DNA of 64,000 nt, taken from positions 1,806 to 65,805 of the forward strand of contig JAJQIL010000072.1 of the NCBI GenBank assembly GCA_021199235.1, given 5' to 3'. This DNA comes from Lachnospiraceae bacterium (GTDB taxonomy: Bacteria > Bacillota > Clostridia > Lachnospirales > Lachnospiraceae). The position numbers and the translations under genes were made by a program. Positions within the stretch are counted from its first letter, which is position 1, and the number at the start of each line of letters is the position of its first letter. The notes under the pieces are model-generated. The model saw nothing but the letters and a program-made list of their open reading frames with translations. It was not told where the DNA came from and made no database searches. This document shows positions 7,332 through 57,989 of the stretch, piece after piece.

Positions 7332-7409
7332 GGATACCCGCGCCATGCAAATCGTCCTGCGGACGATGGGCGCGGGCTGCGTCCCCCGGTTTCGGTGGAA
7401 ACCGGGGAC
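7332..7409 (+). repeat. Family-1 double-hairpin palindromic element, copy A
   Basis: GGATA CCCGCGCC ATGCAA ATCGTCC TGC GGACGAT G GGCGCGGG CTGC GTCCCCCGGTTTC GGTG GAAACCGGGGAC; same architecture as copies at 47124, 50093, 51881, 53478 and 57909. Confidence 0.75.
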
Positions 7410-7437
7410 AATATACAATATACAGGTGGAACGGATT

Positions 7438-8376
7438 ATGATACACAGAACGATCAGAAATGCGGTGGTGACGGGACCTACCGGAGCGATTGGAGCAGCT
7501 TTGTGCGAAAAACTTCTGTCGGAAGGAATTCACGTATGGGCGGTCTGCCGTCCGGGGAGTGCGCGGGCAGCTGATCTGCCCGAGGATGAGAATCTGCATA
7601 TTCTGTACTGCGACGCGAAGGATATTCTGACGCTTGCCGATCAGATCCCTGTCAGGCAGCAGGCTTTCTTTCATCTGGCCTGGGCCCATACGATCGGAGA
7701 GGGCCGGAACAACATGATCGCCCAGACAGAAAATATACAATATACCCTGTATGCGGTGCAGTGCGCCGCAAAGCTCGGCTGTCAGGTATTTATCGGAGCC
7801 GGAAGCCAGGCGGAATACGGCAGGGTAAACGGCCCGCTTCACGCGGATACTCCCTGCAATCCTGAAAACGGATACGGTATGGCCAAGCTGTGTGCGGGGC
7901 AGATGAGCCGTATTGAAGCCGGAAAGCTCGGGATCGCGCATATCTGGCCGCGGGTATTGTCAGTATATGGTCCGCATGAGTGTTCAACTACGATGACATC
8001 ATTTTTGGCAGAGACTCTTTTGAAAAACGAGAAGTCGGCTCTGACAGCGGGAGAACAGATATGGGATTATCTGTATTCCGCGGACGCCGCGGATGCCTTT
8101 TACCGGATGGCTTTATCCGGCAGGGATGGGGCCGTGTATCCTCTCGGAAGCGGCGAAGCACGTCCTCTGAAGGAGTATGTGGGCATGATCCGGGATGCGA
8201 TCGATCCGGCTCTGCCGCTGGGACTGGGTGAGATTCCCTACGGAAAGCTTCAGGTCATGCATCTGGAAGCGGATATCAGCGCTCTGAAAGAAGATACCGG
8301 CTTTGAGGTACATACGGATTTTGCGGAAGGCATCAAAAAGACGATAGACTGGATCAGGAGTCGGGAAAATGAGTGA
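7438..8376 (+). CDS. NAD-dependent epimerase/dehydratase/reductase (extended SDR)
   Basis: VVTGPTGAIG Rossmann motif; GSQAEYG; YGMAK (YxxxK). Confidence 0.88.
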   Translation: MIHRTIRNAVVTGPTGAIGAALCEKLLSEGIHVWAVCRPGSARAADLPEDENLHILYCDAKDILTLADQIPVRQQAFFHLAWAHTIGEGRNNMIAQTENIQYTLYAVQCAAKLGCQVFIGAGSQAEYGRVNGPLHADTPCNPENGYGMAKLCAGQMSRIEAGKLGIAHIWPRVLSVYGPHECSTTMTSFLAETLLKNEKSALTAGEQIWDYLYSADAADAFYRMALSGRDGAVYPLGSGEARPLKEYVGMIRDAIDPALPLGLGEIPYGKLQVMHLEADISALKEDTGFEVHTDFAEGIKKTIDWIRSRENE

Positions 8377-9331
8377 AGAAAAGAAAAAAATATCCGTGAT
8401 GATCCCCTGCTATAATGAGGAAGAAAATGTGGTTCCCATCAGCGAGGCGGTCGTAGACATTTTAAATAAAGAACTGCCGGAGTATGATTATGAAATCCTT
8501 TTTATCGACAATTGCTCTACGGATAGAACCAGGGATCTGCTCCGGGCTATCTGCAGTCAGAACCCGAAGATCAGAGCAATTCTGAACGCCAGGAACTTCG
8601 GACAGTTTAACTCCCCTTACTATGGACTGTGCCAGACAACGGGAGACTGTACGATCTCGCTGTGCTGCGATTTTCAGGATCCGGTGGAGCTGATCCCGGT
8701 ATTCGTTCACGAATGGGAAAAGGGCTATAAGATCGTGAGCGGGATCAAGACGTCCAGTAAGGAAAACCGGTTTATTTACTTTTTAAGAACCGTATATTAT
8801 AAACTGATCAAGAATATGTCGTCCGTGGATATGATCGAGCATTTTACCGGCTTCGGACTTTACGATAAGGATTTTATCCAGCTGCTTCGCGATCTGGAAG
8901 ATCCCATCCCGTTTATCCGGGGCGTGGTTGCGGAATTTGGCTATAAACGCAAAGAAATCGAATACGAGCAGCCGAAACGGAGAGCCGGCAAAACACACAA
9001 CAATTTCTATTCTCTGTACGATGCCGCCATGCTGAGCTTTACTTCCTACACGAAGGTTGGCCTGCGGCTGGCAAGCTTTGCAGGGTATATCTGTGCATTT
9101 TTCAGTTTTATCGTCGGAATCGTATATTTTATCCTGAAGCTTCTGAACTGGAACAGCTTTTCAGCGGGCATGGCGCCGCTGGTCATCGGACTGTTTTTCC
9201 TTTCCGGCGTTGAACTGATCTTTATCGGTTTTCTGGGTGAGTATGTCATGAATATCAATCAGAGAGTCATGAACCGGCCGCTGGTGGTAGAAGAAGAAAG
9301 GATTAATTTTGATGAACAGCGTGATAAGTAA
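8369..9331 (+). CDS. GT2 polyprenol-phosphate glycosyltransferase (GtrB-like)
   Basis: IPCYNEEEN, FIDNCSTD, RNFG, CDFQDP, two C-terminal TM helices. Confidence 0.9.
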   Translation: MSEEKKKISVMIPCYNEEENVVPISEAVVDILNKELPEYDYEILFIDNCSTDRTRDLLRAICSQNPKIRAILNARNFGQFNSPYYGLCQTTGDCTISLCCDFQDPVELIPVFVHEWEKGYKIVSGIKTSSKENRFIYFLRTVYYKLIKNMSSVDMIEHFTGFGLYDKDFIQLLRDLEDPIPFIRGVVAEFGYKRKEIEYEQPKRRAGKTHNNFYSLYDAAMLSFTSYTKVGLRLASFAGYICAFFSFIVGIVYFILKLLNWNSFSAGMAPLVIGLFFLSGVELIFIGFLGEYVMNINQRVMNRPLVVEEERINFDEQRDK

Positions 9332-12131: not shown

Positions 12132-12187
12132 ATCATGTGATAACTATTGGGTGAAAGGCATTTAAAATGTAATCAGGAGTTTGCATT

Positions 12188-13468
12188 ATGGGAGGAAAAA
12201 CAGGTATACTGAAAAAGGCAGGTAAGAAAGAAAAAAAAAATAATCCGGCGCAGATTTTCTGTATTCTGATGTGTGTCAGTCTGATCTGCCTGGTTTTTCT
12301 GTTTTTGTTTACCAACGGAAAAACCATGGATCACTTTTTCTTCTGGGACACTGCGGATTCGGGAATGGATTTTTTTAACAGCATCCGATACATCTGGGGA
12401 CGATGGCCTTATAAACTTTACTCTACATTGTATCCCCCGCTGGCGAATCTGTTTTTTCTCTTAATGTACGCGTTTGTTCCACGGGAAATTACGGATACCT
12501 GGGGCCAGGATGCGTCAATACGCCGGACAGAGCTTGACCTTCGGACTTATCAGTGCGGTTTCATGCTGTATATGATCGTGGTAATTGTCTCTCTGGCGAT
12601 CCTTGTGGCGCTCGCATATAAATATATGAACGAAAAAAATATAAAATATGCAGGCGCTGTTTCCATGCTGTTTTGCTTTAGCTATGGTTCGCTCTATGCA
12701 GTGGAGCGGGGAAACATTATCTTATTAACTGCCGGACTTTCCCTGTTTTTTATTGTTTTTTACAGATCAGAAAACAGGATATTGAAAGAGCTCGCTCTGA
12801 TTTCTCTTGCAATAGCAGCCGGATTTAAGCTTTATCCTGCTTTTCTGGGAGTGCTGTTATTAAAGGAAGGAGATAAAAAGGTTATATTCCGCACAATATT
12901 GTATGGCATTTTAGGCGTTGTGATGCCCTGCTTTGCGTTCAGAGAAGGGCTGGAGGCAATTCCGCTCTGGCTCGAGGTGCTGTCTGAATTTGGTTCAGAC
13001 TCTGTTCAGCCCTGGTTCGGAAATGGTATTGACTGCGCGCTGGCAAATGCCGCGCATCTGCTGGATCTGATTCTCAATACGAATCTGGCAGCGATATCCT
13101 GGAAATATGTTGCATATGCAATAGCACTTATTTTTCTGGCAGCGGCATTTTTTATGGACAAATTATGGGAAAGCGTATTAGCGCTGACCTTTGTAATGCT
13201 GTTTCAATCGCAGGCGGATTACTTTTACTGTATGTCTCTTATCCCATTGCTGCTGTTTCTGACGGAAGAAAAAAAGATTACGAAAGAGAACATCATTCCT
13301 TTTGTGATAATGATGTGTATGGTTCTCCCCTTTCCGCTTCTGTATTGCGAGGACGAATTTTATCCCCGGGACATTTTAATACATGTTTCCGTATTTGTTT
13401 TACTGTTCCGGGATATTGCCATAGTGGTACCGAAAATGAGGAGGCACAGAAATGAAGCCGGATCATAA
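12188..13468 (+). CDS. GT87 (DUF2029)-like polyprenol-phosphosugar glycosyltransferase
   Basis: DFFNS...PY...LYPPLANLFF, ERGNI, FKLYPA; multi-TM. Confidence 0.75.
   Translation: MGGKTGILKKAGKKEKKNNPAQIFCILMCVSLICLVFLFLFTNGKTMDHFFFWDTADSGMDFFNSIRYIWGRWPYKLYSTLYPPLANLFFLLMYAFVPREITDTWGQDASIRRTELDLRTYQCGFMLYMIVVIVSLAILVALAYKYMNEKNIKYAGAVSMLFCFSYGSLYAVERGNIILLTAGLSLFFIVFYRSENRILKELALISLAIAAGFKLYPAFLGVLLLKEGDKKVIFRTILYGILGVVMPCFAFREGLEAIPLWLEVLSEFGSDSVQPWFGNGIDCALANAAHLLDLILNTNLAAISWKYVAYAIALIFLAAAFFMDKLWESVLALTFVMLFQSQADYFYCMSLIPLLLFLTEEKKITKENIIPFVIMMCMVLPFPLLYCEDEFYPRDILIHVSVFVLLFRDIAIVVPKMRRHRNEAGS
12231..12240 (+). repeat. A10 homopolymer in the 5' end of the GT87 gene
   Basis: Ten consecutive A at 12231-12240. 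Confidence 0.95.
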
Positions 13469-14729: not shown

Positions 14730-15223
14730 AAATCGTTGAGTATATAGTCAGAAAAGCTTTTGAAATCCTGGAGAAGGTGTTCCGGATCAAAGTGAAGCCG
14801 GCCGCAGTGGACGCCATCGTGCAATTTGGAAAGTTTGGTGTTGTTGGAGTGACCAATACCGTTATTTCTTATGTGCTGTATGCGGGAACCCTGCTCCTGC
14901 TGCAGCGCGCGCAGCTGTTTCCGCAGATTGACTATCTGCTCTCGCAGGTGACGGCGTTCGTGCTCAGTGTTCTCTGGTCGTTTTACTGGAACAACCGTCT
15001 GGTCTTTACCAGGACGGAAGGAAAGCACCGCTCTTTGTGGCGCACCCTGCTGAAGACCTATATTTCCTATTCCTTTACCGGCCTGTTTTTAAGCAGCTTC
15101 CTGCTGATCCTCTGGGTGCAGATCCTGGGAATTTCGGAGTTCATCGCGCCGATCTTCAATCTGATCATCAGTGTGCCGCTGAATTTTCTCATCAACAAGT
15201 TCTGGGCGTTCCGGGAAAAGTAA
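14726..15223 (+). CDS. GtrA family lipid-linked monosaccharide flippase
   Basis: QFGKFGVVGVTNT...NFLINKFWAF; four TMs. Confidence 0.88.
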   Translation: MKIVEYIVRKAFEILEKVFRIKVKPAAVDAIVQFGKFGVVGVTNTVISYVLYAGTLLLLQRAQLFPQIDYLLSQVTAFVLSVLWSFYWNNRLVFTRTEGKHRSLWRTLLKTYISYSFTGLFLSSFLLILWVQILGISEFIAPIFNLIISVPLNFLINKFWAFREK

Positions 15224-15231
15224 GATCGGAG

Positions 15232-15258
15232 GTAACTGTGAAGGTACTGAACAGTTAC
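15232..15258. repeat. Family-2 REP-like palindrome with an 8-bp flanking duplication
   Basis: GTAACTGT GAAGGTACTGA ACAGTTAC flanked by GATCGGAG at 15224-15231 and 15259-15266. Confidence 0.88.
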
Positions 15259-46987: not shown

Positions 46988-47286
46988 TCAATAAATCAAT
47001 GATAAGGCTGGAAAAATCTGTTACACTAAGGATCAATACAACGGATAAACACAGCGGGGATGCTGTGGCAGAGGCAATCGAGTCGATACATCAGTCTTCT
47101 GCGGCGCATCTGTTTTACGATAAGGAAAGCTGCGCAATATAAAATCGCTGCGCGATTGTATATCTCGTACGAAGTGCGGGATGCCCACGCCCCACGATCG
47201 GAGATTGGGGGCATACCCGGCGAGGGGCGCGGCCTTCGTCCATACTCGCTGCACGAGTACGGACATGTAATGAGCAGGCACTTCGA
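46988..47286 (+). pseudogene. Internally deleted duplicate of 48985-50187
   Basis: High similarity to 48985-49059 joined at GGATG to 50027-50187. Confidence 0.85.
47124..47267 (+). mobile_element. Family-1 element copy B with a 68-bp nested insert, flanked by TAA/TAA
   Basis: Near-identical to copy C except for an extra hairpin block; TAA at 47121-47123 and 47268-47270. Confidence 0.8.
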
Positions 47287-47357
47287 TTTTTGAATCTTAC
47301 GCCCAATGTCTGTGCAGTCTCAGTCTATATAGAGCCAAAATTCCTGGAATCACACCA

Positions 47358-47493
47358 ATAATCATGTCTGGGTGTGATTAAACGACCACAATAATCTGGA
47401 ATATGTGCATTTTTAGTGGAATAATAATCTAAAAAAAGTGCGAAAATATCGAAATGATAATCTTGCATTTGTGCAAATTCTCATGTATAATCC
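47358..47493 (+). repeat. Degenerate 33-bp-period array ATAATC-N8-GTG overlapping the promoter
   Basis: ATAATC at 47358, 47391, 47424 and 47457 (exact 33), then 47487 (30); GTG at offset +14 in four units. Confidence 0.85.
47463..47491 (+). promoter_or_regulatory. Sigma-A-like promoter
   Basis: TTGCAT-17 bp-TATAAT. Confidence 0.65.
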
Positions 47494-47572
47494 CCACAGT
47501 TAATATAATAGTCGGCCGCTATGCAAACAGTTAACCTGCACGCAGAAATAAGGGCCGATTCATTTATCTGAA

Positions 47573-48934
47573 ATGGAGAAGCTTATGCGGAGAAAAATAT
47601 ACGATACATTACTCGAATGGAAACACCGTTCCGGACAGACCGCGCTGTTGATCGACGGAGCAAGGCGGGTCGGAAAGAGCTACATTGCCGAAAAGTTTGC
47701 CAGGGAGAATTATAAATCCTATATCCTGATTGATTTCAACCGCGCAAGCCGTCAGGTGCAGGAGCTGTTTGAAAATTATCTGGATGATCTGGACACATTT
47801 TTTCTGTATCTGTCAGGCTATTATAATGTACGTCTTTATCAGGGAGAGACGCTGATCATATTTGACGAGGTGCAGATGTTCCCGCGGGCGAGAGGAGCCA
47901 TCAAATATCTGGTAGCGGACGGCAGATATGCCTATCTGGAAACAGGTTCTCTTATGTCGATACGGAAAAACGTTCGGGACATTGTAATCCCTTCCGAGGA
48001 GGAACATGTCTATATGTATCCCATGGATTTTGAGGAATTTCTGTGGGCCATGGGAAATGAGACGCTGATGCCCCTGATTCGCTCCTGTTATGAGAAAAAG
48101 CGTCCGATGGGGCAGGCGATGCACCGGAAAGCGATGGATTATTTCCGGCAGTATCTGATTGTCGGCGGGATGCCGCAGGCAGTGGAAGCCTATCAGGATA
48201 AAAGGGATTTCACCGAAGTAGACCGCATAAAGAGAGGAATTCTCACACTTTATCGGGAAGACATCCGCAAGCATTCCGCCGGAAATGAGTTGGAGGTCGA
48301 GGCTATTTTTGATCTGATACCGGCGCAGCTGTCCCGGCATGAGAAAAAGTTCCGCCTGAAGGACATCCGATCGGGGGCGAGAACAAGGCAATACGAGCAG
48401 CCTTTCTTCTGGCTGGCAGATGCCATGATCGTAAATAACTGCTACAATTGTTCCGAGCCGAACGTCGGACTGAAAATGAATATGGATCGGAAAACCATGA
48501 AGTGTTATCTGGCCGACACAGGTCTGCTGATCAGCCACGCCTTTGACGAGAAGGGCATTGTTTCGGAGGAAATCTATCGAAAGCTGTTATTTGACAAGCT
48601 TACGGTCAATGAAGGCATGCTGATGGAAAACATCGTGGCGCAGATGCTGGTGGCTTCCGGGCACAAACTCTACTTTTTCTCAAAATGCTCGCGCACAGAT
48701 GCCAGCGCAAGGATGGAGATTGACTTTCTGATCGCAAAAAGCAGAATCACCAGTGCACATAACATTTCACCAATCGAAGTAAAATCCGGTGAGCGGTATA
48801 CGTTATCTTCTCTGAAAAAGTTCCGGATGAAGTATGGCGGGTATATGGATATGCCGGTCGTGCTGCACACGAAGGACTATAAGGAAGAAAACGGAATCCT
48901 GTATCTGCCGATTTATATGACTCCGCTGCTGTGA
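47573..48934 (+). CDS. AAA_14 ATPase + DUF4143 protein (paralogue of 35132)
   Basis: GARRVGKS, IFDEVQ, ETGS, GGMP, EIDF...PIEVKSG, YLPIYM. Confidence 0.88.
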   Translation: MEKLMRRKIYDTLLEWKHRSGQTALLIDGARRVGKSYIAEKFARENYKSYILIDFNRASRQVQELFENYLDDLDTFFLYLSGYYNVRLYQGETLIIFDEVQMFPRARGAIKYLVADGRYAYLETGSLMSIRKNVRDIVIPSEEEHVYMYPMDFEEFLWAMGNETLMPLIRSCYEKKRPMGQAMHRKAMDYFRQYLIVGGMPQAVEAYQDKRDFTEVDRIKRGILTLYREDIRKHSAGNELEVEAIFDLIPAQLSRHEKKFRLKDIRSGARTRQYEQPFFWLADAMIVNNCYNCSEPNVGLKMNMDRKTMKCYLADTGLLISHAFDEKGIVSEEIYRKLLFDKLTVNEGMLMENIVAQMLVASGHKLYFFSKCSRTDASARMEIDFLIAKSRITSAHNISPIEVKSGERYTLSSLKKFRMKYGGYMDMPVVLHTKDYKEENGILYLPIYMTPLL

Positions 48935-48995
48935 TGGGTAAAAGGGCGTCACTGCGATAGTCACGCATTTACCAACTTGCCCGGTCAATAAATCA

Positions 48996-50499
48996 ATGAC
49001 AAGACTGAAAAAATCTGTTACATTAAAGACCAGTACAACGGATGAACACAGCGGGGATGGCTCTTATAAGACGCATCTCAATCAGTATCATGTTATCTAT
49101 ATAGATATTATCTGGTTTATATCGCAGCTTCTCAGTCAGGGCAAAAGCATAGACCAGATCGTGCTGCTGATGCAGAGTCAGGTGATCGAAGAGCTTGCGA
49201 GTGATTATCCGCAGGTAAAAGGCGGGACAGACCTTCCGACTGCGCTTTTTCAGATCGCGGAGTCTACTGGGCGGCAGTTCGTTTTTCTGATTGATGAGTG
49301 GGATGCGATTTTTCGAGAAGCAGCTGATAATAGTCTTGTGAAAGAGCAGTATTTGAATCTGCTTCGGGGCTTATTCAAAAGTCCTGTGACCAGCAGGGCT
49401 ATTGCTGTGGCATATATGACTGGCATCCTTCCAATTAAAAAATATGGAAAACAGTCGGCCCTGACCGATGTTCTGGAGCTTACTATGGTCAATCCTGGGA
49501 ATCTGGCCTGTTATGTAGGCTTTACAGAAGATGAAGTGAAGGCTCTCTGTAAAGAACATGAGTTGAATTATGAGGATATGAAACGCTGGTATGATGGATA
49601 TTCGTTTGATGACAGCGGATCTGTCTATAATCCGAATTCTGTCATGGAGGCAATCTCCATGCGTAATTACGATACGTATTGGGCGAATACGGAAACATAT
49701 GAGTCTCTGAAATCTTATATAGAGGAAGACTTTGACGGAATTCAGAGTGCTCTGAAAAGTATGCTGAGCGGACAGGATGTTCCTGTCAATATACGGAAAT
49801 TTCAAAACGACATGAGCATTCTGAAAAACAGGGATGATGTTTTTACTTTGCTTATCCATCTGGGATACCTGGCATATGACAGGAATACAAAGATGGTACG
49901 CATTCCAAATGAGGAAATCCGACAGGAATTTATTACCGCTATCGAAGACAGTGAGAAACACGCAGAGCTCGCAAGACTGATTGTACGGTCCAGACAACTT
50001 CTAAAGGATACACTGGCAATGCGCGAGGATGCTGTGGCAGAAGCAATCGAGTCGGTACATCAGTCTTCGGCTGCACCTCTGTTTTACAAAAAGGAAAGCC
50101 GCGCAATATAAAATCGCTGCGCGATTGGCGCGGCCTTCGTCCATACTCGCTGCACGAGTACGGACATGTAATGAGCAGGCACTTCGAAGCGTGGTTCGCA
50201 CGGCATATATGGTTTGCATAGATGAGTATGCGGAAATTCAGGAGCTTCCTACCGGCCATGGATATGCAGATCTGGTTTATCTGCCCCGGGCAGGCTCGCC
50301 CTTACCGGTACTTCTGATTGAACTGAAATGGAATGAATCAGATGACGGTGCGATTGCACAGATTAAAGATCGTAAATATCCGAAACAGTTGGAAAACCTG
50401 CGGCATGATATTCTTCTGGTTGGGATTAATTATTCAGAAAAAGATCCGAATAAAAAGCATACCTGTAAAATAGAAAAGCAGACGATCCAAAACAGGTAA
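48996..50499 (+). pseudogene. AAA-ATPase-like/PD-(D/E)XK nuclease protein, N-truncated and frameshifted by an insertion
   Basis: FVFLIDEWDA, MTGILPI, GYADLVYLP...LIELKWN; Walker A absent; split at 50090. Confidence 0.85.
50093..50168 (+). mobile_element. Family-1 element copy C, inserted in a coding sequence
   Basis: Removing 50090-50168 (79 bp) restores PLFY-NNEQALRSVV. Confidence 0.88.
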
Positions 50500-50524
50500 A
50501 AGCAGACAGGCGAACAAGCTCTCT

Positions 50525-50740
50525 CTAATCGACTTGCTCGCCTGTTTTTCTATTCGAGACAGTTTCAATAACTGAGTCGAGCAGAAGCTCCTTTTGAGCA
50601 GCAGGACAATCCAGATTCTTTATATACTGGCTGACGGTTTCCGCGTGGATGCCGGCGACACGCTCTGCCAGTCCTTTTTTTCCGGCTTTTGTTTTGGGAT
50701 AATGAACAATCACATGGATTTCAGCACTTTTTCTTGCCAT
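50525..50740 (-). CDS. Small hypothetical protein of the type seen in Lachnospiraceae mobilisable elements
   Basis: MARKSAEIHVIVHYPKT...LAERVAGIHAE; resemblance recalled, not searched. Confidence 0.55.
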   Translation of the reverse strand: MARKSAEIHVIVHYPKTKAGKKGLAERVAGIHAETVSQYIKNLDCPAAQKELLLDSVIETVSNRKTGEQVD

Positions 50741-50841
50741 AACAGGCACCCCCTGGTATTTCAGTTTATGTAAAAGAAGTTGTCCGCTATTACCTTGAAA
50801 TATAGTGCGGTTTGTGTTTCAAAATCTGAATGACCGGTGCT

Positions 50842-50968
50842 ATAATCCTCAATACTCTTACAGGAATGCATTTTGACGACCGTAACCAGTTTATTGACAG
50901 TCTGAACCGATACAGCCTTCTGATTATTGACGACCTTGGTGCGGAACGGGATTCTGAGTTTTCCAAAA
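50842..50968 (+). pseudogene. Fragment of an IstB/DnaC-like ATPase
   Basis: ILNTLTGMHFDDRNQFIDSLNRYSLLIIDDLGAERDSEF (Walker B LLIIDDLG). Confidence 0.75.
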
Positions 50969-50992
50969 GTCATGCGCGATAATATTGATCAG

Positions 50993-51027
50993 TTTTGCTA
51001 AGTGGTCATTTTGACCACTTAGCAAAA
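50993..51027. repeat. Perfect 16-bp inverted repeat (family-3 core GGTCA-N3-TGACC)
   Basis: TTTTGCTAAGTGGTCA-TTT-TGACCACTTAGCAAAA. Confidence 0.9.
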
Positions 51028-51030
51028 AAT

Positions 51031-51048
51031 GTTTACAATTTGGTTACA
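51031..51048 (+). promoter_or_regulatory. Putative OmpR-family binding box
   Basis: GTTTACAATTTGGTTACA, identical at 54523; TTACA repeated with 11-bp period. Confidence 0.7.
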
Positions 51049-51138
51049 TCGCATCCATTGAAAAACAGGCTTGTACATATTAATATATAGGAAAACTATT
51101 TCAATATCTGATCATCAGAGGAAGTGTGTTGTGTGAAT

Positions 51139-51891
51139 ATGAAAGAAAGAATATTGGTCATTGAGGACTCTGCGGCGATCAATGAACTGATTTGTATTAA
51201 CCTGGAGACGGCGGGGTATGAGCCGATGTCATTTTGGGACGGCGATGCAGTCAGTGCGTGGCTTCGTGATGAGAAACGTCAATGGATATCATACCAAAGT
51301 AAAAATAATATTGTCAGGGGAAACAACTGCCTCGATATGGATGCCCCCGTTGGTCCGGTCATTCCGGCCGCCGATCTGGCACTTCTTGATGTAATGCTTC
51401 CGGGAAAAGACGGTTTTTCGCTGCTGCCGGAGCTGCGCGTGTTGGAAATTCCGGTAATTTTTCTGACGGCAAGGGACGACCTGAACAGCAAGATTCATGG
51501 CTTAAAAGATGGGGCAGAGGATTATATCGTTAAGCCGTTTGAAATGTTGGAACTGCTTGTGCGTGTGGAGAAAGTGCTGGCGCGTTACCGAAAGGAATCA
51601 GAAGTCTTTGTGGTGCGGGATGTCGTAATTTTTCCGGAGGAACGGCGGGTGACAAAGGCAGGAAAGGAGATTCCTTTGAAACCTATGGAATTTGATTGTC
51701 TGCTGCAGCTGGTGAAATATAAAAATATTGCCCTCAGTCGCGAGCAACTGATCAATACGCTGTGGGGTGTGGATTTTGATGGTGAGACACGCACCATTGA
51801 TGTACACATTGCGAGACTGCGGAAAAAACTGGATTTTCAGGATGTCATCCAGACTGTGCCTCGCATTGGCTATCGGATTACATGTCCATGA
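51139..51891 (+). CDS. OmpR/PhoB-family response regulator
   Basis: LVIED, LLDVMLP, FLTA, DYIVKPF, RTIDVHIARLRKK. Confidence 0.93.
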   Translation: MKERILVIEDSAAINELICINLETAGYEPMSFWDGDAVSAWLRDEKRQWISYQSKNNIVRGNNCLDMDAPVGPVIPAADLALLDVMLPGKDGFSLLPELRVLEIPVIFLTARDDLNSKIHGLKDGAEDYIVKPFEMLELLVRVEKVLARYRKESEVFVVRDVVIFPEERRVTKAGKEIPLKPMEFDCLLQLVKYKNIALSREQLINTLWGVDFDGETRTIDVHIARLRKKLDFQDVIQTVPRIGYRITCP

Positions 51892-51962
51892 TTTGTGAAG
51901 CAAATCATGGACGAAGGCCGAGCCATCGAGCGAAGCTCGATTTTATAATGGCGAGGCTCTCC
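51881..51962 (-). mobile_element. Family-1 element copy D (supplies the response-regulator stop codon)
   Basis: Near-exact reverse complement of 57909-57989. Confidence 0.88.
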
Positions 51963-51992
51963 ACATATGTCCATGAGTGAGGAGGCTGAGGC

Positions 51993-53438
51993 ATGAGAAC
52001 GAAAATATCAGTCGTGTCAGCCCTGTTGCTTCTGATGTTATCTCAGATTTTTTCCATCTGGAACCTGTATGAAACACAGATGCGGATGATTGGTGTTGTG
52101 CTCGGAGATGAACAGACGGGACTTTCTTCTGACATGAGTTCTTTTTCGAAACAGATTTCAAAACTTGGCATTACAGATGAGCGGTGGATACCGGCTGCGG
52201 CGCGGTCTGTTTTCCTGAGTTCTTACAGTACGGATGCTGTACTTTATTATGATGGCGAAGTGCTTGTGAACAGTACATCCTATGAATTTGATCTGGAAGC
52301 GGGGACTCCCCTTGATGAGAAATATCAGAAATACGCGCTTATCAGTGCGTACAGTTCGAATGACAACATTGCTGCTTATCTTGCCAAAATAAACAGGAGC
52401 ATCCTTTTGATTACTTATATAGAGGAACCTTCTTATGGCTCAGGAAATGGATTCGCTCTTTTGCATTATCGGGATGTTACGGTTATCTTTCGGGAAAGCA
52501 GACTTCTTTTTCTGCGCGGAATTATTATTTCGCTGGCTCTTGCGTTGATTCTTGGCCTTGCGTTGACGCTGATCATACGCAGACTTTTTGTGCCGTTATA
52601 TCAGCTGAAGGATACAGCAAATGTCATTGCGGACGGGCAGTATGAGGAACGTGTTCCGTTGAAGAGAAGAACAGGAAAAAAGGAAGATGAAGTCACGGAA
52701 ATCGCACTCGCTTTCAACCGCATGGCAGAGAACGTTGACGAACATATCAGGACACTGGATGAAATGAATGAGAAGCAACGAATGCTGCTCGGCGCGCTTT
52801 CCCATGAACTGAAAACACCGATGACCAGCATTCAGGGTTATGCGGAGCTGTTACAGCGTGTTCAGCTTTCTCCGGAGCGGCAGGCGTCTGCACTGAACTA
52901 CATCGAGCAGGAAAGCCGGAGGCTTTCACGCCTGTCCGTTAAAATGCTTCATCTACTAGACCTGTCGGATGAGTCCGATATCGAATCGAAGGACATTTCC
53001 GTTGAAACGCTTTTCTCGAAAACAAAAGATATCGTTCAGAAAAGACTGGAGGAAAAAGAGATTTCGCTGCAGCTTATAGTAGATTCTGACCTGATAGTTA
53101 CCGGAGACGAGGATTTATTACTCTCTCTATTGACCAATCTGATTGATAACGCCAGGAAAGCCAGCCCGCAGGGCAGCACCATTACTCTGAGCGCTTATTC
53201 GGAAGGACTATATGTTCAGGATGAGGGCTGCGGTATCGCACCGGAGGAGCAGAAAAAGATTCTGGAACCATTTTATATGGTAGATAAAGCCAGAACACGC
53301 CAGGAAGGCGGTGCTGGTCTGGGTCTTGCCTTATGTGCGCAGATTGCCAGACTGCATGGAGGAAGAATTGAAATAGAAAGTATTCCTGGGAAAGGCAGCC
53401 GGATAGGGGTGAAGTGGAATGTTTTTCAAACGAAGTGA
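51993..53438 (+). CDS. HAMP-domain sensor histidine kinase
   Basis: Two TMs; SHELKTPMTSI; NLIDNA; DEGCGI; GLGLAL. Confidence 0.93.
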   Translation: MRTKISVVSALLLLMLSQIFSIWNLYETQMRMIGVVLGDEQTGLSSDMSSFSKQISKLGITDERWIPAAARSVFLSSYSTDAVLYYDGEVLVNSTSYEFDLEAGTPLDEKYQKYALISAYSSNDNIAAYLAKINRSILLITYIEEPSYGSGNGFALLHYRDVTVIFRESRLLFLRGIIISLALALILGLALTLIIRRLFVPLYQLKDTANVIADGQYEERVPLKRRTGKKEDEVTEIALAFNRMAENVDEHIRTLDEMNEKQRMLLGALSHELKTPMTSIQGYAELLQRVQLSPERQASALNYIEQESRRLSRLSVKMLHLLDLSDESDIESKDISVETLFSKTKDIVQKRLEEKEISLQLIVDSDLIVTGDEDLLLSLLTNLIDNARKASPQGSTITLSAYSEGLYVQDEGCGIAPEEQKKILEPFYMVDKARTRQEGGAGLGLALCAQIARLHGGRIEIESIPGKGSRIGVKWNVFQTK

Positions 53439-54432
53439 GAGGAAGGGGTTAAACTTTAGAGGGAAGGCTCACCAGAACATGTCCCGATTCGTGCAACGAA
53501 TCGAGGACGCAGGCCGAGCCATCAAGCGAAGCTTGATTTTACATGGCGAGGCTCACCAGATTCTCTCAGTCACACGTTGTTGCTTCCTTGGTTTTTTTCA
53601 AAACCCGAGGACAATCATACTTTTCCTTTTTGGCGTAGTGCTCTGCTTTTTGCTGAGCAGCCGTGTCACAGAGGTGGCTGAATATTACGGGACGACAATG
53701 CAGGCAGCGGAGCCATTTATCTGGACATTCGGTGATTCTACTGCAATCTTGATGATTTCACTGCTTCTGATCTTTCTGTTTTCTGACCTGCCGAAGCTGA
53801 CACCATTTACACCGTTTCACCTGATGCGGACGACGAAAAGCCGCTGGCTGATAGCTCAGCTGCTCTATATCATACTCTGCACAGCGTTGTACATTCTCTT
53901 TATCCTGGTTGTCACAGTCGTGCTCTGTATGAAATATTCCTACACAGGAGATCTGTGGAGCGAGACGGCGGTCATCCTTGGCTATTCTTCTTTAGGCGAT
54001 CAGCTGAATGTTCCATCTACGGTCAAGGTAATGGAGAGCATTACCCCCATCGGCTGTATGGCACAAGTTGCGCTGCTGATGTTTGCTTACAGCCTGACAC
54101 TTGGATTTCTGATTCTGCCGGGTAATTTGCTGTTCGGGAAAAAGACCGGGATGTTTTTTGCCTTGCTCTACAGCCTGTACGGATTTCTGCTCGACCCGGA
54201 TGTGCTCGGGAAAATACTGGGGCTTGAGACTTATGAACTCTATCGTGTCCGCAGTATTGTCGGCTGGATCAGTCCGCTGAATAATGCGGTCTATGGGATG
54301 CATGATTTCGGATATGACAACCTGCCGTCCATCGCACAGTCTCTGTTGATCTTTGGAGGAATCTTGACAGTTGGAATTTTCATTTCCTGGCGGGCAGTGA
54401 AAAAATACAATTTCACGTTTCTGGGGACGTGA
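53419..54432 (+). CDS. ABC transporter permease-like membrane protein
   Basis: About six TMs; in operon with an ABC ATPase; carries a 28-aa repeat-derived insert. Confidence 0.7.
   Translation: MFFKRSERKGLNFRGKAHQNMSRFVQRIEDAGRAIKRSLILHGEAHQILSVTRCCFLGFFQNPRTIILFLFGVVLCFLLSSRVTEVAEYYGTTMQAAEPFIWTFGDSTAILMISLLLIFLFSDLPKLTPFTPFHLMRTTKSRWLIAQLLYIILCTALYILFILVVTVVLCMKYSYTGDLWSETAVILGYSSLGDQLNVPSTVKVMESITPIGCMAQVALLMFAYSLTLGFLILPGNLLFGKKTGMFFALLYSLYGFLLDPDVLGKILGLETYELYRVRSIVGWISPLNNAVYGMHDFGYDNLPSIAQSLLIFGGILTVGIFISWRAVKKYNFTFLGT
53465..53560 (-). mobile_element. Family-1 element copy E: in-frame 84-bp insertion with 12-bp direct repeats
   Basis: AGGCTCACCAGA at 53465-53476 and 53549-53560. Confidence 0.88.
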
Positions 54433-54438
54433 AGAATG

Positions 54439-54465
54439 GTAACTGTGAAGGTATTGAACAGTTAC
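54439..54465. repeat. Family-2 REP-like palindrome
   Basis: GTAACTGTGAAGGTATTGAACAGTTAC flanked by GAATG/GAATG. Confidence 0.85.
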
Positions 54466-54522
54466 GAATGGCTTATTTTGGAATAGCAGATTACAGACTT
54501 ATGTTCTGCACTGTAGTAAAAC

Positions 54523-54560
54523 GTTTACAATTTGGTTACAACCTGGCAAGGACCTGGCAA
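54523..54560 (+). promoter_or_regulatory. Second copy of the putative OmpR box, followed by ACCTGGCAA x2
   Basis: GTTTACAATTTGGTTACA; ACCTGGCAA at 54541 and 54552 (11-bp period). Confidence 0.7.
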
Positions 54561-54633
54561 CATCTTTCCTGATATACTGTGATCGTAAGAAGAAAACGTA
54601 AGGCAGTTACTGCTGCATTGAAAGGGGAGCATT

Positions 54634-56283
54634 ATGAAAAATAGAAGACGTTACCTTGCCCTGTTGCTTAGCGCAATGTTGTTATCGGGCTGCGCTGCCA
54701 CACCGGATAGCAGCATTGTGCGGCAGAAGGGAAGCCAGAGTCAGGATAATTACCGTGAGGCGGATGACGGTTCATCTGAAGAGACGGGTGAGACGCAGAA
54801 TGTTTCTGGAGTTGAAGTATCGTTAGAGGATGAACCGGACACAGGAAGCTTTGACCAGGAAGATACCGTTAGCGGTAATGCTGAAAATGTCCTCGCCACC
54901 CGCCTTGGCGTGCCGGACACCTACACCGCGACAGCCTCCACATCCGACGGAAGCTTCACTATGACCAGTAACAACGCTATGGTTGAGGTGCCGGATGTTT
55001 CACAGGTGCCGGTCTACCCGGTTGCTCAGATGGAATTCACTCAGGAATTTATTGACCTGATAACAGAAGCTTTTTTCGGAGAAGGCCCGGTTTACGATTA
55101 TGCTTATTACTATCAAACGACAAAGGCGGAGGCGTTGGAGAAGTTAAATGAGCTGAAAAAGTATCAGGCGGAGGGAAATACAGACCCATATGGCTATATC
55201 GAAGCCGCGAGAGAAAACGGTGTATTTGAGGATGGGTCGGTTACGGAGAGCGATATTTACAATCTTCAGGAAGAGATTGATGAGTGGGAGCAGGTTTACG
55301 CAGAGGCGCCGGAGACAGTGGAAAAGGTGGAAGTTACGCCTGGCTTTGGTGTAACTTCTTACGAGGATGAGAATGGAAACCCGGTGTACTACGATGATTA
55401 TTTTTTCGGAGTTGTGGAAAGGGAGGATGGACTTTTTTCCTATATTTTGAAAAATTCCTCCTCGACGCCGATGTCGATTCGGATTTCCCGTTATGCCGAT
55501 AAGGAAGAGATAACAGAGGATGTCAGCTGGGAGGAAACATACTATGATTCAGAGACGTTTGCTTCCAATGCTTATCGTCCAACGCAGGAGAAGTGTGAGG
55601 AACTGGCGGGAATTACGGTAGAGGAAGCAATCGCAGTTACAGACACGTATATGGAGCAACTGGGGCTGTCGGACGAATTCTCTGTGGGTTTCACGACGCA
55701 TGCATGGAAGAATCTGGAGAGCAGTGGCTTTACATCAGATACGTACACTTCAAGCTGCATCGACGGCGGCTGGTACATCGTCTATACACGGACACTGGAC
55801 GGAATCCCTGTTACCTACGAGATGAATGAAGGCGGTGGACTGGAATCCATGGAAAGCACGACGGAGCCGTGGTGCTATGAATTTGTGACATTTATTGTAA
55901 ACGCGGATGGTCTGCAGGAAGCAGAGATTCAGAACCTGTATGAGGTCGGGGAAAAGAAGTACGAGAATGTGGATTTGCTTTCTTTTTCCGAGATAGCGGA
56001 AATATTTGAGCAGATAATTGTGATTCAGAATACAGACAGCTACGAGGATTCCGCAAGTCTGGAAATTACAGAAGTCACTCTTGGATATATGCGCATCTAT
56101 GATCCGGGCGCGGACAGCCGCAGCGGAACACTCGTGCCGGTGTGGGATTTCTTTGGGAGTGAGGAAGTACACAGCACATACGATGGGGTGGAATACACGA
56201 ATTACATTGACTATCCCGGCAACAGCTTTCTGACGATCAATGCGGCGGACGGCACGATCATCGACCGCAGTCTGGGGTATTAG
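54634..56283 (+). CDS. Acidic lipoprotein (DUF6034-like by recollection)
   Basis: Lipobox LLSGC; very D/E-rich; C-terminal LVPVWDFFG...INAADGTIIDR. Confidence 0.7.
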   Translation: MKNRRRYLALLLSAMLLSGCAATPDSSIVRQKGSQSQDNYREADDGSSEETGETQNVSGVEVSLEDEPDTGSFDQEDTVSGNAENVLATRLGVPDTYTATASTSDGSFTMTSNNAMVEVPDVSQVPVYPVAQMEFTQEFIDLITEAFFGEGPVYDYAYYYQTTKAEALEKLNELKKYQAEGNTDPYGYIEAARENGVFEDGSVTESDIYNLQEEIDEWEQVYAEAPETVEKVEVTPGFGVTSYEDENGNPVYYDDYFFGVVEREDGLFSYILKNSSSTPMSIRISRYADKEEITEDVSWEETYYDSETFASNAYRPTQEKCEELAGITVEEAIAVTDTYMEQLGLSDEFSVGFTTHAWKNLESSGFTSDTYTSSCIDGGWYIVYTRTLDGIPVTYEMNEGGGLESMESTTEPWCYEFVTFIVNADGLQEAEIQNLYEVGEKKYENVDLLSFSEIAEIFEQIIVIQNTDSYEDSASLEITEVTLGYMRIYDPGADSRSGTLVPVWDFFGSEEVHSTYDGVEYTNYIDYPGNSFLTINAADGTIIDRSLGY

Positions 56284-56290
56284 TATTATA

Positions 56291-56370
56291 GGATGCCACC
56301 CGGCGAGGGCAAGTCGCACCGCATTTGAAAAACGCTTCGCGTTTGGGCGGCGCTCACGAATCGGGATATG
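56291..56370 (+). repeat. Divergent family-1 element copy F
   Basis: Shares GGATGCC and ACCCGGCGAGGG with the insert in copy B; AAACGC-TTC-GCGTTT hairpin; ends CACGAATCGGGATATG-TAA like copy E. Confidence 0.65.
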
Positions 56371-56403
56371 TAAGGCATGGCTAAGGAAAAATGAGGCACT
56401 AAG

Positions 56404-57133
56404 ATGGATTTTACCAGAATGCTGCATGAGAAAAAATTCTATCTGGCGGTGCTGCTTTCCGTGGCGGCTATCATAGCCGGAACCGTCTGGCCGGAGTCAA
56501 AAAAAGATTCGCCTCTGGCTTGCGGTACCTTTTTGGAACTGCTGAACAGTTCCCTGCAGTCTCAGATCGTGCTTTTTATTTTGCCGCTCGCTGCCGTCCT
56601 GCCCTGCGGAGAGGAGTATCTGCGGGAAAAGGATTCCCGTTTTCTGCGCTTTCTGATTATTCGTCGGAGCAAAGTGGTTTACTGCCTGGACAAGGTGGTG
56701 ACGACCGCGCTTTCCGGAGCGATTATCTGGCTTTTGGGGGCATTTTTCGCGGGGCTTTTCTTTTTTTTGCTTTTTTTTCGGCCGCGAAGCACTCTGGAAC
56801 TGGCCGATGAGTACGATTTTTACTTTGCTTGCCACGCTGGGACGCATCCTGCTATCGGCTTCGTCACTCGCCAGCCTTTCCGCAGTCGCCGGTGTGCTCG
56901 GTGGAAGCGTATATCTGGCGTTCGGCGTCCCATTCCTTTTGTGGTACGCCTGCATCATCCTGCGGGAACGCTATTTCGAAACGCTTTACTGCATTGACCC
57001 AACAGAATGGATCACGGCAGAAAACAACTGGGGAAATAATCAGACGGAACTCTGGATTTTGCTGCTTTTACTTGCGTTATTCTGTGCGGCGCTGCACTGG
57101 ATCTTTCTGGACTGGAAACTGAGAGAGATATAA
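56404..57133 (+). pseudogene. ABC permease-like membrane protein, frameshifted in a T8 tract
   Basis: Removing one T from 56771-56778 joins ORF 56404 to ORF 56807 (LFFGREALWNWPMSTIF). Confidence 0.8.
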
Positions 57134-57143
57134 AAGCGAAAAT

Positions 57144-57165
57144 GTAACTGTGAAGGTAATGAAAA
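57144..57165. repeat. Half family-2 palindrome
   Basis: GTAACTGTGAAGGTAATGAA; right arm degenerate. Confidence 0.65.
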
Positions 57166-57277
57166 ATCGTGAGAAAACAGACAGAAACAGATATGAAAAT
57201 TTATCGTAAAAAACGCAGGAACCATTCGCTTAGTGACGCCTGATGATGTGTTGTCTTGCAAAAGGAGTGAACGAATC

Positions 57278-57928
57278 ATGGCAGATTATTATATCCAACT
57301 GCACCATGTACGAAAACGTTTTGGCACGGAGGAAGTCTTAAAACCACTGGATTTTGCGGTTGAACGGGGGAAAACATACGGAATCTGCGGAAACAATGGC
57401 TCCGGTAAAACTGTCCTGATGAAATGTATCTGTGGTTTTCTGCCGGTGACGGAAGGGCTGATCACAGTTGACGGGAAGCGGATTGGCTATGATGTAGACT
57501 TTCCGGAGAGCCTTGGGGTGATCATCGAGACACCGGGATTCCTTTCCAATTTAAGCGGGCGGAGGAACCTGGAAATTCTGGCAGATCTGCGCGGATTGAT
57601 CGGGCGAAAGGAAATTACGTCCGTACTTGTGCGTGTCGGCCTTGACCCGGAACTGAAAAAGCCGGTCGCAAAATATTCACTGGGGATGCGGCAGCGGCTG
57701 GGCATTGCACAGGCAATTATGGAAGAACCGGAGCTTCTGATCCTCGATGAACCGTTTAACGGTCTTGACCGCCATGGCGTTGCGGAGATCCGCACACTGC
57801 TGCTTGCTGAGAAGCAAAAGGGAAAAACAATCCTGCTTGCGAGTCATAACAGCGAAGATATTCGTATCCTTTGTGACCGGGTGTTTGAGATGGATGGCGG
57901 CATGATGCGGAGAGCCTCGCCATTATAA
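57278..57928 (+). CDS. ABC transporter ATP-binding protein
   Basis: GNNGSGKT, YSLGMRQR, LILDEP. Confidence 0.93.
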   Translation: MADYYIQLHHVRKRFGTEEVLKPLDFAVERGKTYGICGNNGSGKTVLMKCICGFLPVTEGLITVDGKRIGYDVDFPESLGVIIETPGFLSNLSGRRNLEILADLRGLIGRKEITSVLVRVGLDPELKKPVAKYSLGMRQRLGIAQAIMEEPELLILDEPFNGLDRHGVAEIRTLLLAEKQKGKTILLASHNSEDIRILCDRVFEMDGGMMRRASPL

Positions 57929-57989
57929 ATCGAGCTTCGCTCGATGGCTCGGCCTTCGTCCATGATTTGCTTCGCAAATCATGGACATG
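57909..57989 (+). mobile_element. Family-1 element copy G (supplies the ABC ATPase stop codon)
   Basis: GGAGA GCCTCGCC ATTATAA ATCGAGC TTC GCTCGAT GGCTCGGC CTTC GTCCATGATTTGC TTC GCAAATCATGGAC ATG. Confidence 0.88.

Follow-up and report, generated by a model that had tools for sequence, protein, structure and literature searches.

A family of mobile DNA elements of ~80 bases that form hairpins, from a few uncultured gut Lachnospiraceae

The short repeats scattered through the window (the whole 64,000-nt stretch of Lachnospiraceae DNA that was analyzed) form a real and previously undescribed family of ~80-base hairpin-forming mobile DNA elements, carried by a few uncultured gut Lachnospiraceae. 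Judged from sequence comparison, the element is very probably mobile, non-autonomous, and modular and is tolerated in frame within genes, a confidence that concerns the element and not the enzyme that moves it. The initial annotation had already read the repeats as non-autonomous and mobile, which was borne out by many empty sites in congeners and by an insertion that splits a gene. It missed the in-frame copies inside genes and the build from two modules that move and reassort separately.

Detection of the family and copies in the window

The covariance model R1 was built from four copies of the same layout, and a threshold of E ≤ 1e-4 was used for the main count. A search of the 3.47-Mb genome with this model returned 58 copies at E ≤ 1e-4 and 74 matches at E ≤ 1, with the family matches spread over ~45 contigs. 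The unit of ~84 nt reads (AT)GGAGAG, helix P1 (8 bp), the bulge ATGCAGA, the P2 hairpin, P1′, the linker CCTGC, the P3 hairpin (GTC..GAC), and AW plus ~3 nt. P1/P2 is referred to as module A, and the linker plus P3 as module B. The features of the window were the following.

Copy A, 7332-7411, + strand: full element (module A plus module B), intergenic, after a stop codon; covariance model 63.4 bits, E 2e-12
Copy B, 47124-47266, + strand: same insertion as copy C, in a duplicated fragment of the same gene; covariance model E 8e-5
Copy C, 50093-50171 (covariance model 50093-50167), + strand: 79-nt insertion that frameshifts and splits an AAA-ATPase_like + PDDEXK_9 gene
Copy D, 51881-51976 (covariance model 51882-51962), − strand: between response-regulator and histidine-kinase genes
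Copy E, 53465-53560 (covariance model 53479-53557), − strand: 84-nt insertion, in frame on the + strand
Site F, 56291-56375, + strand: chimera of a variant of a second repeat family and the 3′ half of the P3 hairpin (..CACGAATCGGGATATGTAA); not a full member
Copy G, 57905-57991 (covariance model 57909-57988), + strand: 87-nt insertion in the 3′ end of an ABC-ATPase gene (Pfam ABC_tran)
Copy H, 58225-58310, − strand: module A plus linker only, without P3; antisense inside ORF 57992-59947; covariance model 32.2 bits, E 3e-5

Eight candidate sites had been listed by the initial annotation, and six of them (A to E and G) were recovered by the covariance model with E values from 2e-19 to 8e-5. Site F was ruled out as a family member, since the model does not detect it and sequence comparison reveals a chimera, whose fused small repeat has 5 copies in the genome. 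The site at 26194, listed as a possible copy, was rejected because it has only CGGGCTTCGTCC in common with the family. Copy H is an additional window copy that was absent from the earlier list. A nested 68-nt block in copy B (~47159-47226) carries the second small repeat family, with 5 copies in the genome. In Rfam, only an FMN riboswitch reached the gathering score in the window, and nothing relevant was found at E ≤ 10 for copy G.

Structure, covariation, and modularity

The architecture first described for the window copies, namely GGAGA, P1, an A/T-rich bulge, P2 (ATC..GAT), P1′, CT(T/G)C, P3 (GTCC..GGAC), and A(T/A), held, and its proposed stem covariation was confirmed. In the alignment, 95.5% of the cells were paired, compared with 76.3% in shuffles, and none of 500 shuffles attained the observed value. 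Double compensatory changes occurred in 25 of the 27 pairs, all three helices covaried strongly, and slid-register controls gave only 26–39% paired cells. The DNA folds had z-scores of −4.5 to −6.5 on both strands. The claim that most loops read TTC or TGC was true of the window copies, but only of about one third of the copies genome-wide. Among the unpaired cells, C.A plus A.C combinations numbered 31 versus 12 for G.T plus T.G, a count inflated by shared ancestry, and these wobble statistics point weakly to the bottom strand as the folded strand. The unpaired motifs GGAGAG, ATGCAGA, CCTGCGTC, and GACAT were conserved. Terminal inverted repeats were absent, the left end (GGAGAGCC..) being unrelated to the reverse complement of the right end (ATGTC..).

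Since the identities of module A and module B between copies were uncorrelated (r = 0.04), the two modules can each occur, move, and reassort separately. The mean pairwise identity within the family was 65%, and only one pair attained 95%; copies D and G are 97.5% identical. The family is thus old and diverse, and current activity of the element is therefore only putative.

Empty sites, unit length, and target

Copies were gained and lost at orthologous sites between species: more than 20 of them had empty orthologous sites in congeners, with up to 98% flank identity. The sites empty in relative G010 were those on contigs C72, C161, C55, C116, and C157, at C56:19166, C34:20283, and C37:65970, and those of the ppnK copy and copy A. 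Copies D, E, and G were missing from relative G015 at 96–98% flank identity, and the C130 copy from relative G018. The cysS site was contiguous, with no insert, in ~10 other species.

The window copies illustrate these insertions. When the 79 nt of copy C were taken out, frame and colinearity were restored (..FYK|NEQALRS..); the Pfam domains of its host gene fall on two ORFs either side of the split, and the genome holds eight intact, contiguous paralogs. Copy D, a net insertion of 86 nt relative to the empty G015 site (98% identity), is flanked by the 10-bp direct repeat TCATGGACAT (reverse complement at 51881-51890 and 51967-51976), which is the element's own 3′ end. For copy E, the 12-bp direct repeat AGGCTCACCAGA (+ strand) lies at 53465-53476 and 53549-53560, a single 12-mer is present at the empty G015 site (98% identity), and the + strand ORF remains open across the insertion. 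Copy G is flanked by a 3-bp ATG repeat and replaces the last 17 codons of the ABC-ATPase gene with RRASPL-stop; the empty G015 site reads GGCGGCATG|ATGAGGGAG at 96% identity. At copy A, the G010 site lacks the element yet retains its 3′ 17 nt (TGGAAACCGGGGACAAT), and the deletion there is bounded by two TGGA repeats. The "empty" alleles of D, A, and E, which keep 9–17 nt of element sequence, could be deletion footprints instead of naive targets.

Insertions were unit-length, 81–87 nt and usually 84, or 36 nt for module B alone. Such a 36-nt module-B insertion was nested in two resident copies of relatives, in G018 or G010 and not in G000, at the same internal position. The direct repeats varied from 2 to 12 nt (2, 3, 5, 10, and 12 nt at sites with sequenced empty alleles) and overlapped the unit's own 5′ or 3′ end, in agreement with the homology-like target choice suggested by the initial annotation. 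Copy-specific duplicated bases (ATTAT, ATTAC, GAAAT, TCT.., and TCATGGACAT) were seen at C5, C130, C56:19166, D, and E. The earlier remark that right flanks resemble the left end could be generalized: the right flank has ATGGA at positions +4 to +8, a counterpart of the AT|GGA at the left junction, and 42 of 58 copies carry G at +6. The right flank matched ATGGAGA at 3.29 of 7 positions versus a background of 1.77, and flank repeats scoring ≥8 were found for 12% of the copies compared with 2.5% of non-self pairs. A fixed 5-bp target duplication was rejected, a perfect 5/5 flank repeat being present in only 3 of 58 copies. Because the direct repeats overlap the unit's own ends, the targets, which resemble ...AT|GGA, look like the head-to-tail joint ...GACAWnnnAT|GGAGAG. 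Since the repeat length varies, this junction rule is based on ~10 clean cases. Copies often lie head to tail, including in arrays such as the 57-nt array on C69 and the triple on C30, and head-to-tail mosaics of the form GACAT-(C/T)TACG-GGAGAGCC occur in another genus.

In-frame copies inside genes

At least 13 copies (about one fifth) lie in frame and stop-free inside genes, comprising at least 12 long sense ORFs plus prfC. The hosts include cysS, prfC, ppnK, nadE, topB, rluA, a GH43 gene, and an EamA gene, and in CysRS, NAD kinase, NadE, TopB, and RluA, Pfam domains flank the insert on both sides. As these copies are in frame without stops, they are predicted to be read through as peptide inserts of ~27–40 aa, typically ~28 aa. 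Translation is inferred from the open frames in essential genes, cysS, ppnK, and nadE each being single-copy in the assembly.

Distribution and genome context

The family was found in 5 of 19 congeners and in 1 of ~200 other genera of the bacterial family, amounting to ~15 Lachnospiraceae MAGs in all. On the strand level, 45 of 62 copies lay on the G-rich strand and 47 of 62 were co-oriented with local genes, the replication-strand and gene-strand biases being confounded. Regarding a possible vehicle, no phage match was obtained, and a single IMG/VR pattern match was not confirmed by the covariance model. A plasmid vehicle was discarded, as the one plasmid match was a chance match in Paraburkholderia.

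The six cleanly alignable orthologous copies had 4 mismatches in 475 nt, versus 189 in 2775 nt of flanks. When all 13 shared sites were pooled, element divergence equaled flank divergence, so the 8-fold slower evolution, which holds for the six alignable sites, is not put forward as a finding.

Candidate mobilizing genes

The absence of a transposase from the window, as initially annotated, was upheld. Across the 19 congeners, the presence of Y1_Tnp (PF01797) did not track the element: neither G018, a 100% complete genome with 52 copies, nor G155, 98% complete and with at least 16 copies, contained it, whereas G002 had 14 PF01797 matches and no element copies. The genome itself has two Y1 genes, of ordinary IS200 and IS605 types and located at contig ends; on contig C43, one of the two lies 0.6 kb away from a copy. 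No RVT_1 reverse transcriptase was found in G018. In G000, no tyrosine recombinase was present within ~4 kb of copies, and the whole of G018 contains only five. Searches of the genome with nhmmer module profiles, whose sensitivity for module B was poor, found no autonomous version with a gene between modules A and B, nor was a parent IS with the same ends found.

Possible mechanisms

A host cis-regulatory RNA, that is, a leader or riboswitch-like structure that sequesters the ribosome-binding site and is conserved in place upstream of genes instead of being mobile DNA, is a most improbable account of the family. It had been suggested by the SD/ATG after many copies, with a same-strand ORF start within −8 to +80 nt in 43 of 66 copies and an ATG at +4 in 15 of 58, and conservation of the six orthologous copies well above that of their flanks also speaks for it. 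Such an RNA was rejected as the origin of the family on the basis of the empty orthologous sites in close relatives, the copies within coding sequences in both orientations, and the patchy distribution over only 5 of 19 congeners; moreover, the downstream genes share no function, and there was no Rfam match even at E ≤ 10. The ATG stands next to copies because the target motif is ATGGA, and at copy G and cysS it is an internal Met codon. Individual copies may possibly have been domesticated secondarily. The structured-RNA route raised by the initial annotation fared little better and is very unlikely. Here, an antisense transcript ending ...GGCUCUCC would prime on a nicked target ending ...GGAGA (target-primed reverse transcription) and give variable target duplications. 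Duplications indeed vary in length and end GGAGA-like, and the 3′ tail after GACAW is ragged, but G018 lacks RVT_1, copies D and A carry homology at the other unit end, and module-B insertions obey the same rule with a different sequence. The HUH/RAYT mover proposed by the initial annotation is likewise unsupported and improbable. In this IS200/IS605- or RAYT-type (Y1 HUH) "peel and paste" of a PATE/REP-like single strand, the bottom-strand unit would insert 3′ of TCCAT and end in TCTCCAT. The asymmetric, hairpin-rich ends without terminal inverted repeats, a pentanucleotide-like target (ATGGA, top strand) equal to the element's own end, the bottom-strand wobble and GNA-loop hints, and the Y1 gene near the C43 copy are all consistent with it. 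Against this stand the lack of Y1_Tnp in the element-rich G018 and G155 and its abundance in the copy-free G002, the typical IS200/IS605 nature and contig-end position of the local Y1 genes, and the copies within genes and without inverted doublets. Furthermore, copy-specific duplicated bases are not made by HUH transposition, and copy-specific direct repeats of 5–12 bp are not its trace.

Replication template switching without any enzyme is a possible but doubtful explanation. A fork would stall at the hairpins, and the nascent strand, guided by short homology (GGAGA-like or GCC.GTC-like), would switch to a donor copy at another locus and then return, pasting the unit between microhomology copies; the same slippage would account for precise excision as well as for tandem arrays. 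In bacteria, slippage stimulated by hairpins and the correction of quasipalindromes are both established processes. The direct repeats of variable length (2–12 nt), which are always part of the unit's own ends, the failure to find a co-occurring transposase or RT, the tandem and partial arrays on C69 and C30, and the G010 deletion between TGGA repeats argue for it. On the other hand, 5-nt homology should very seldom suffice for switches between unlinked loci, and this account does not explain the transfer to a second genus, the exact length of the unit, or the conservation of the unpaired motifs, which look like protein recognition sites.

We favor either recombination at the joint of a folded single strand or template switching during replication. 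In the former, a copy one unit long, most likely single-stranded, folded, and either circular or arranged head to tail, would recombine through its joint with a target sharing a short core, ATGGA for the whole unit and G.CC.GTC for module B. The agent would act in trans without being encoded by the element, and the hairpins would serve as recognition or stalling structures, whose perfection may be helped by quasipalindrome template-switch correction. A recombinase acting on folded DNA is a plausible, tentatively held candidate for this agent. More broadly, the family might, with considerable reservation, have spread without an element-specific transposase of a known class, through a hijacked host recombinase (Xer- or integron-like), a new enzyme family, or hairpin-driven template switching, with units homing to joint-like sequences and quasipalindrome self-correction perfecting the stems. 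If true, this would be a new mode of bacterial transposition and would supply essential proteins of gut Firmicutes with new peptide segments.

Significance

The insertion signature of an 84-nt unit and a 36-nt sub-module fits neither DDE, HUH, nor retro-element rules and therefore points to a mechanism of another kind. The many pairs of occupied and empty alleles are a ready system for finding the mobilizing function. RPE-style in-frame colonization of essential genes is not limited to Rickettsia, affecting here the single-copy cysS, nadE, and ppnK. Small non-autonomous repeats are poorly cataloged in gut Firmicutes, and since elements of this type break or extend ORFs, they will cause errors in gene calling and in RNA-motif screens of metagenome-assembled genomes.

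Comparison with known systems

Comparison with described REP and MITE families revealed no RAYT, no terminal inverted repeats, and no fixed target-site duplication. Classical MITEs (Correia, ERIC, RUP, bcr1) are non-autonomous, shorter than 200 bp, intergenic and occasionally intragenic, and can alter the expression of neighboring genes (PMC10969869, PMC3184786). Our family resembles them in size, lack of autonomy, and location, but their terminal inverted repeats, and the target duplications of constant length that a DDE transposase produces, are both absent here. REP/BIME/REPIN sequences with RAYT form G+C-rich hairpins whose 5′ motif is conserved; they number in the tens and make up mosaic clusters (PMC2817692). 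All these traits, together with vertical retention and conservation of structure over sequence, are common to both. Unlike them, our family has no co-occurring RAYT/Y1, three helices in an asymmetric 84-nt unit instead of one 20–40-nt palindrome, head-to-tail arrays instead of inverted doublets, and many intragenic copies. For REP/REPIN, a RAYT gene (Y1 HUH, PF01797) is expected in every carrier genome and is usually REP-flanked.

IS200/IS605-derived PATE have subterminal hairpins and insert 3′ of a fixed 4–5-nt target without duplication. The lack of terminal inverted repeats, hairpins near both ends, asymmetry, and a short target resembling the element end (here ATGGA-like) are shared, yet copy-specific bases were duplicated at the five sites given above, TnpA is not co-distributed, and no IS with matching ends was found as a parent. 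Integron attC sites, which are arrayed beside intI, and the CTX-phage attP used by Xer are folded single-strand recombination substrates. Common to these and our family are a stem structure conserved over sequence, an asymmetric bulge between two helices, a very short terminal loop, a strand-specific fold, and an insertion that leaves a shared short core at both ends. In contrast to attC/Xer, there are no RYYYAAC/GTTRRRY core sites (no GTT/AAC core in the consensus), and the copies are dispersed on ~45 contigs and not in a single array or at dif.

Rickettsia palindromic elements (RPE) are small palindromic repeats, a sizeable share of which lie in frame in unrelated housekeeping genes and are read as peptide segments, with no transposase (Ogata et al. 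2000/2002, as summarized in PMC10969869). Scattered small palindromes, stop-free in-frame insertion into genes, and the lack of an associated transposase are the points of likeness, which is one of behavior. The hosts differ (Firmicutes here, Alphaproteobacteria for RPE), as do the lengths (~84 vs. ~100–150 bp), and only our family is modular, with end-overlapping direct repeats and head-to-tail arrays. We know of no sequence relation between the two. Because the host is a Lachnospiraceae MAG, common descent is very unlikely; rather than being a member of RPE, the family works like them.

Family membership and copy number

A covariance model of the family (R1; 79 positions, 27 pairs) was built from a seed of four copies with identical segment lengths. 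The ~84-nt element comprises module A (helices P1 and P2) and module B (a linker and the P3 hairpin). In the source genome (3.47-Mb assembly, 161 contigs), R1 matched 74 sites at E ≤ 1, of which 58 passed E ≤ 1e-4, a density of about one copy per 50-60 kb, and a regular-expression search for the conserved linker found the motif spread across the whole genome. No Rfam entry matched the motif, even at E ≤ 10. The layout described in the initial annotation was present in seven of its eight claimed sites on direct reading of each, and six of the listed copies (A, B, C, D, E, and G) were recovered by R1, which also found an unlisted copy, H. Site F was instead a chimera of half a P3 hairpin and another five-copy repeat, and the site at 26194 was rejected as a member on sequence comparison.

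7332-7411 (+), copy A
47124-47266 (+), copy B
50093-50171 (+), copy C
51881-51976 (-), copy D
53465-53560 (-), copy E
56291-56375 (+), site F, chimera
57905-57991 (+), copy G
58225-58310 (-), copy H

The 11 kb at 47000-58400 contain eight copies or fragments, compared with one per 50-60 kb on average in the genome; the region looks accessory and seems to be a local hot spot.

Structure and modules

When 43 copies from five genomes were aligned with R1, standard pairs made up 95.5% of cells versus 76.3% after shuffling, and 0 of 500 shuffles reached the observed value, which bears out the covarying stems proposed initially. Both sides had changed in 25 of the 27 pairs, covariation was seen in all three helices, and a slid-register control gave only 26-39% pairing. 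The most conserved positions were unpaired motifs (GGAGAG, ATGCAGA(A), CCTGCGTC, and GACAW). Mean pairwise identity between copies was 65%, with a nearest-neighbour median of 80%. Quasipalindrome template-switch correction, established in E. coli, could explain the ~95% pairing kept in old, diverged copies. Both DNA strands folded well (z-scores -4.5 to -6.5). On the GGAGAG strand, C.A and A.C cells numbered 31 versus 12 for G.T and T.G, counts inflated by common ancestry, and P1 of copies D, E, and G carried tandem T.C/C.T mismatches, which are G.A/A.G on the opposite strand. These mismatch data weakly favour the bottom strand as the folded one.

A 36-nt module-B hairpin (GTACCGTCC..GGGACATW) was nested cleanly in otherwise orthologous copies of two relatives, at the identical internal position 2 nt before the P1′ end, and the A-B1-B2 arrangement was found again in the source genome. 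Head-to-tail junctions (GACAT-N4-6-GGAGAG) were common, above all in G155, from another genus of the family. One array on contig C69 (16482-16680, minus strand) held module A three times in tandem, repeating every 57 nt, and then one P3, the frame being open throughout. A long hairpin, GTCATAAGGATTGCCGACGAAGTCGGAGGATCCCTTATGAC, replaced P3 in three copies (C83:62387, C22:2005, and C137:20128), one of them in frame in topB. At G155 loci L140-L154, copies had an additional conserved hairpin (GACGATGCggctagtGCATCGTAAGG) after them and, before them, either a ..CATTCCAAATCG.. block, likewise conserved, or a module-B remnant, together forming BIME-like mosaics. A second small repeat family, GGGATGCCCGCGCCCCACAATCGAAGATTGGGGGCATAACCCGGCGAGGG (~5 copies), was nested in copy B and was fused to a P3 module, replacing module A, in C83 and site F:

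47178-47226, window
56291-56310, window
C83:74876-74925
C25:32147-32195
C48:7466-7498
C31:8649-8698

Empty orthologous sites

The joined flanks of 23 copies were searched in congeners and aligned at base level. For nearly every copy, one or more relatives had an unbroken orthologous site lacking the element, in keeping with the mobility first proposed. The sites of E, D, and G were empty in G015 (flank identity 96-98%), that of the C130 copy in G018, and those of A, the ppnK copy, C72:1097, C161, C55, C116, C56:19166, C34:20283, C157:8790, and C37:65970 in G010; several sites were also occupied in G018 or G010. Since the cysS site was contiguous in ~10 further species, the polarity is fixed as insertion. 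Copy C was a 79-nt insertion breaking an AAA-ATPase_like/PDDEXK_9 gene, and eight intact paralogs in the source genome were colinear across its junction. This host gene (48996-50499) is one of at least nine close paralogs (45-52% identity), with further members on contigs C37, C113, C56, C103, C114, C83, and C160, and the same genome has many distant ones.

The alleles called empty at D, A, and E retained 9-17 nt of element sequence and may be footprints of deletion between repeats. In six orthologous copies common to the source genome and G018 or G010, picked for clean alignment, 4 of 475 positions differed versus 189 of 2775 in the flanks, where the nearest mismatches lay 2-9 nt from the element. 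With all 13 shared sites pooled, element and flank divergence were equal (9.0%); differences beyond the six were module gain or a different occupant.

Copies inside genes

At least 12 copies lay within long sense ORFs with the frame open through each, and a prfC copy was the thirteenth. Pfam domains flanked the insert in CysRS (tRNA-synt_1e / insert / DALR_2, CysS_C), NadE, and TopB, and the insert lay within the matched domain in NAD kinase and RluA. Since cysS, ppnK, and nadE were single-copy in the assembly, their insert-bearing alleles must, judging from sequence, be functional, and the 27-40 aa inserts would most simply be translated. Copy E was antisense and in frame within a probable plus-strand ORF. 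Each of the six frames was stop-free in 47-79% of copies versus 43% of shuffles, and the intragenic copies are therefore a selected subset. Of 62 copies, 47 pointed with local genes and 45 lay on the G-rich strand, two biases that are inseparable.

Comparison of 57992-58090 with G015 (locus L089) indicated that the start called at 57992 for the long ORF is probably too early, the likelier one being MSSGMN.., which resembles a signal peptide. The ABC-ATPase ORF of G015 extends 17 codons more, the stop there being aligned with TGG in the source genome. An ordinary FMN riboswitch (RF00050, 100 bits) lies near the window end at 63758-63892 (+).

Junctions and target

Terminal inverted repeats were not found in the element. 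Direct repeats were read at sites with sequenced empty alleles.

Net insertion and direct repeat at individual sites
E: 84 nt; 12 nt, TCTGGTGAGCCT, element's 5′ end included
D: 86 nt; 10 nt, TCATGGACAT, the element's 3′ end
G: 87 nt; 3 nt
C161: 84 nt; 2 nt
cysS: 84 nt; 8-11 nt range, ATTATGGA
C130: 85 nt; 8-11 nt range, ATTACGGA.AG
prfC: 84 nt; 5 nt, GAAAT
GH43: 81 nt
ppnK: 120 nt (one unit plus an extra module B); 2 nt

The resemblance of right flanks to the left end, noted initially in a few copies, held genome-wide as nnnATGGA, which mirrors AT|GGAGAG at the left junction; 42 of 58 copies had G at +6. Flank repeat scores of ≥8 occurred in 12% of self pairs versus 2.5% of non-self pairs, and perfect 5-mer repeats in 3 of 58 copies versus 0.4% expected. 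Therefore, the target resembles the unit's head-to-tail joint. The frequent ATG 3 nt past the element is part of this junction motif; it encodes an internal Met at G and cysS.

Distribution

When a single genome from each species was scanned for the exact pattern, ~15 MAGs matched, all bearing the label Lachnospiraceae or Clostridiales bacterium; R1 did not confirm two further matches, in Acidobacteriota. Across the genus, R1 found 20-89 copies in each of 5 of 19 species and zero in the others, and G155 (at least 16 copies) was the one positive when 200 further genera of the family were covered. None of the phage and plasmid records searched carried the element.

Candidate movers

Unit-length insertion, the lack of terminal inverted repeats, variable end-derived repeats, the same rule for a differing sub-module, and head-to-tail arrays fit a mechanism in which a circular or tandem single-stranded copy would recombine via its joint with a target that has a short core in common with it. 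Our tentative candidate for the agent, at less than an even chance, is a trans-acting recombinase; tyrosine recombinases occurred in every genome checked, yet none adjoined a copy, and a search for an autonomous version of the element found none. Replication template switching at stalled hairpins would fit as well and is only slightly less probable.

The HUH/RAYT-type enzyme proposed by the initial annotation is improbable, since HUH transposition would leave no duplication and enzyme co-occurrence fails: Y1_Tnp (PF01797) was absent from G018 and G155, whereas G002 had 14 matches and zero copies. The matches in the source genome were one IS200-type tnpA (C43:2440-2839) and one IS605-type (C83:90190-90563, with one in-frame TGA and a tnpB start); both lie at contig ends and thus probably represent multi-copy insertion sequences breaking the assembly. 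Retrotransposition does not fit the evidence set and is very improbable; no RVT_1 reverse transcriptase domain was found in G018. DDE transposition, which expects terminal inverted repeats and a fixed duplication, does not fit. The insertion mechanism may be a new one.

Comparison with known systems

The family is structurally similar to REP/BIME and to IS200/IS605-type hairpin ends, but differs in their defining features, having no RAYT or TnpA link and no inverted doublets and not being confined to extragenic DNA; it likewise lacks the defining features of MITEs. From its sequence features, we class the family as a small non-autonomous palindromic mobile element, the closest functional parallel being the Rickettsia palindromic elements (PMC10969869).
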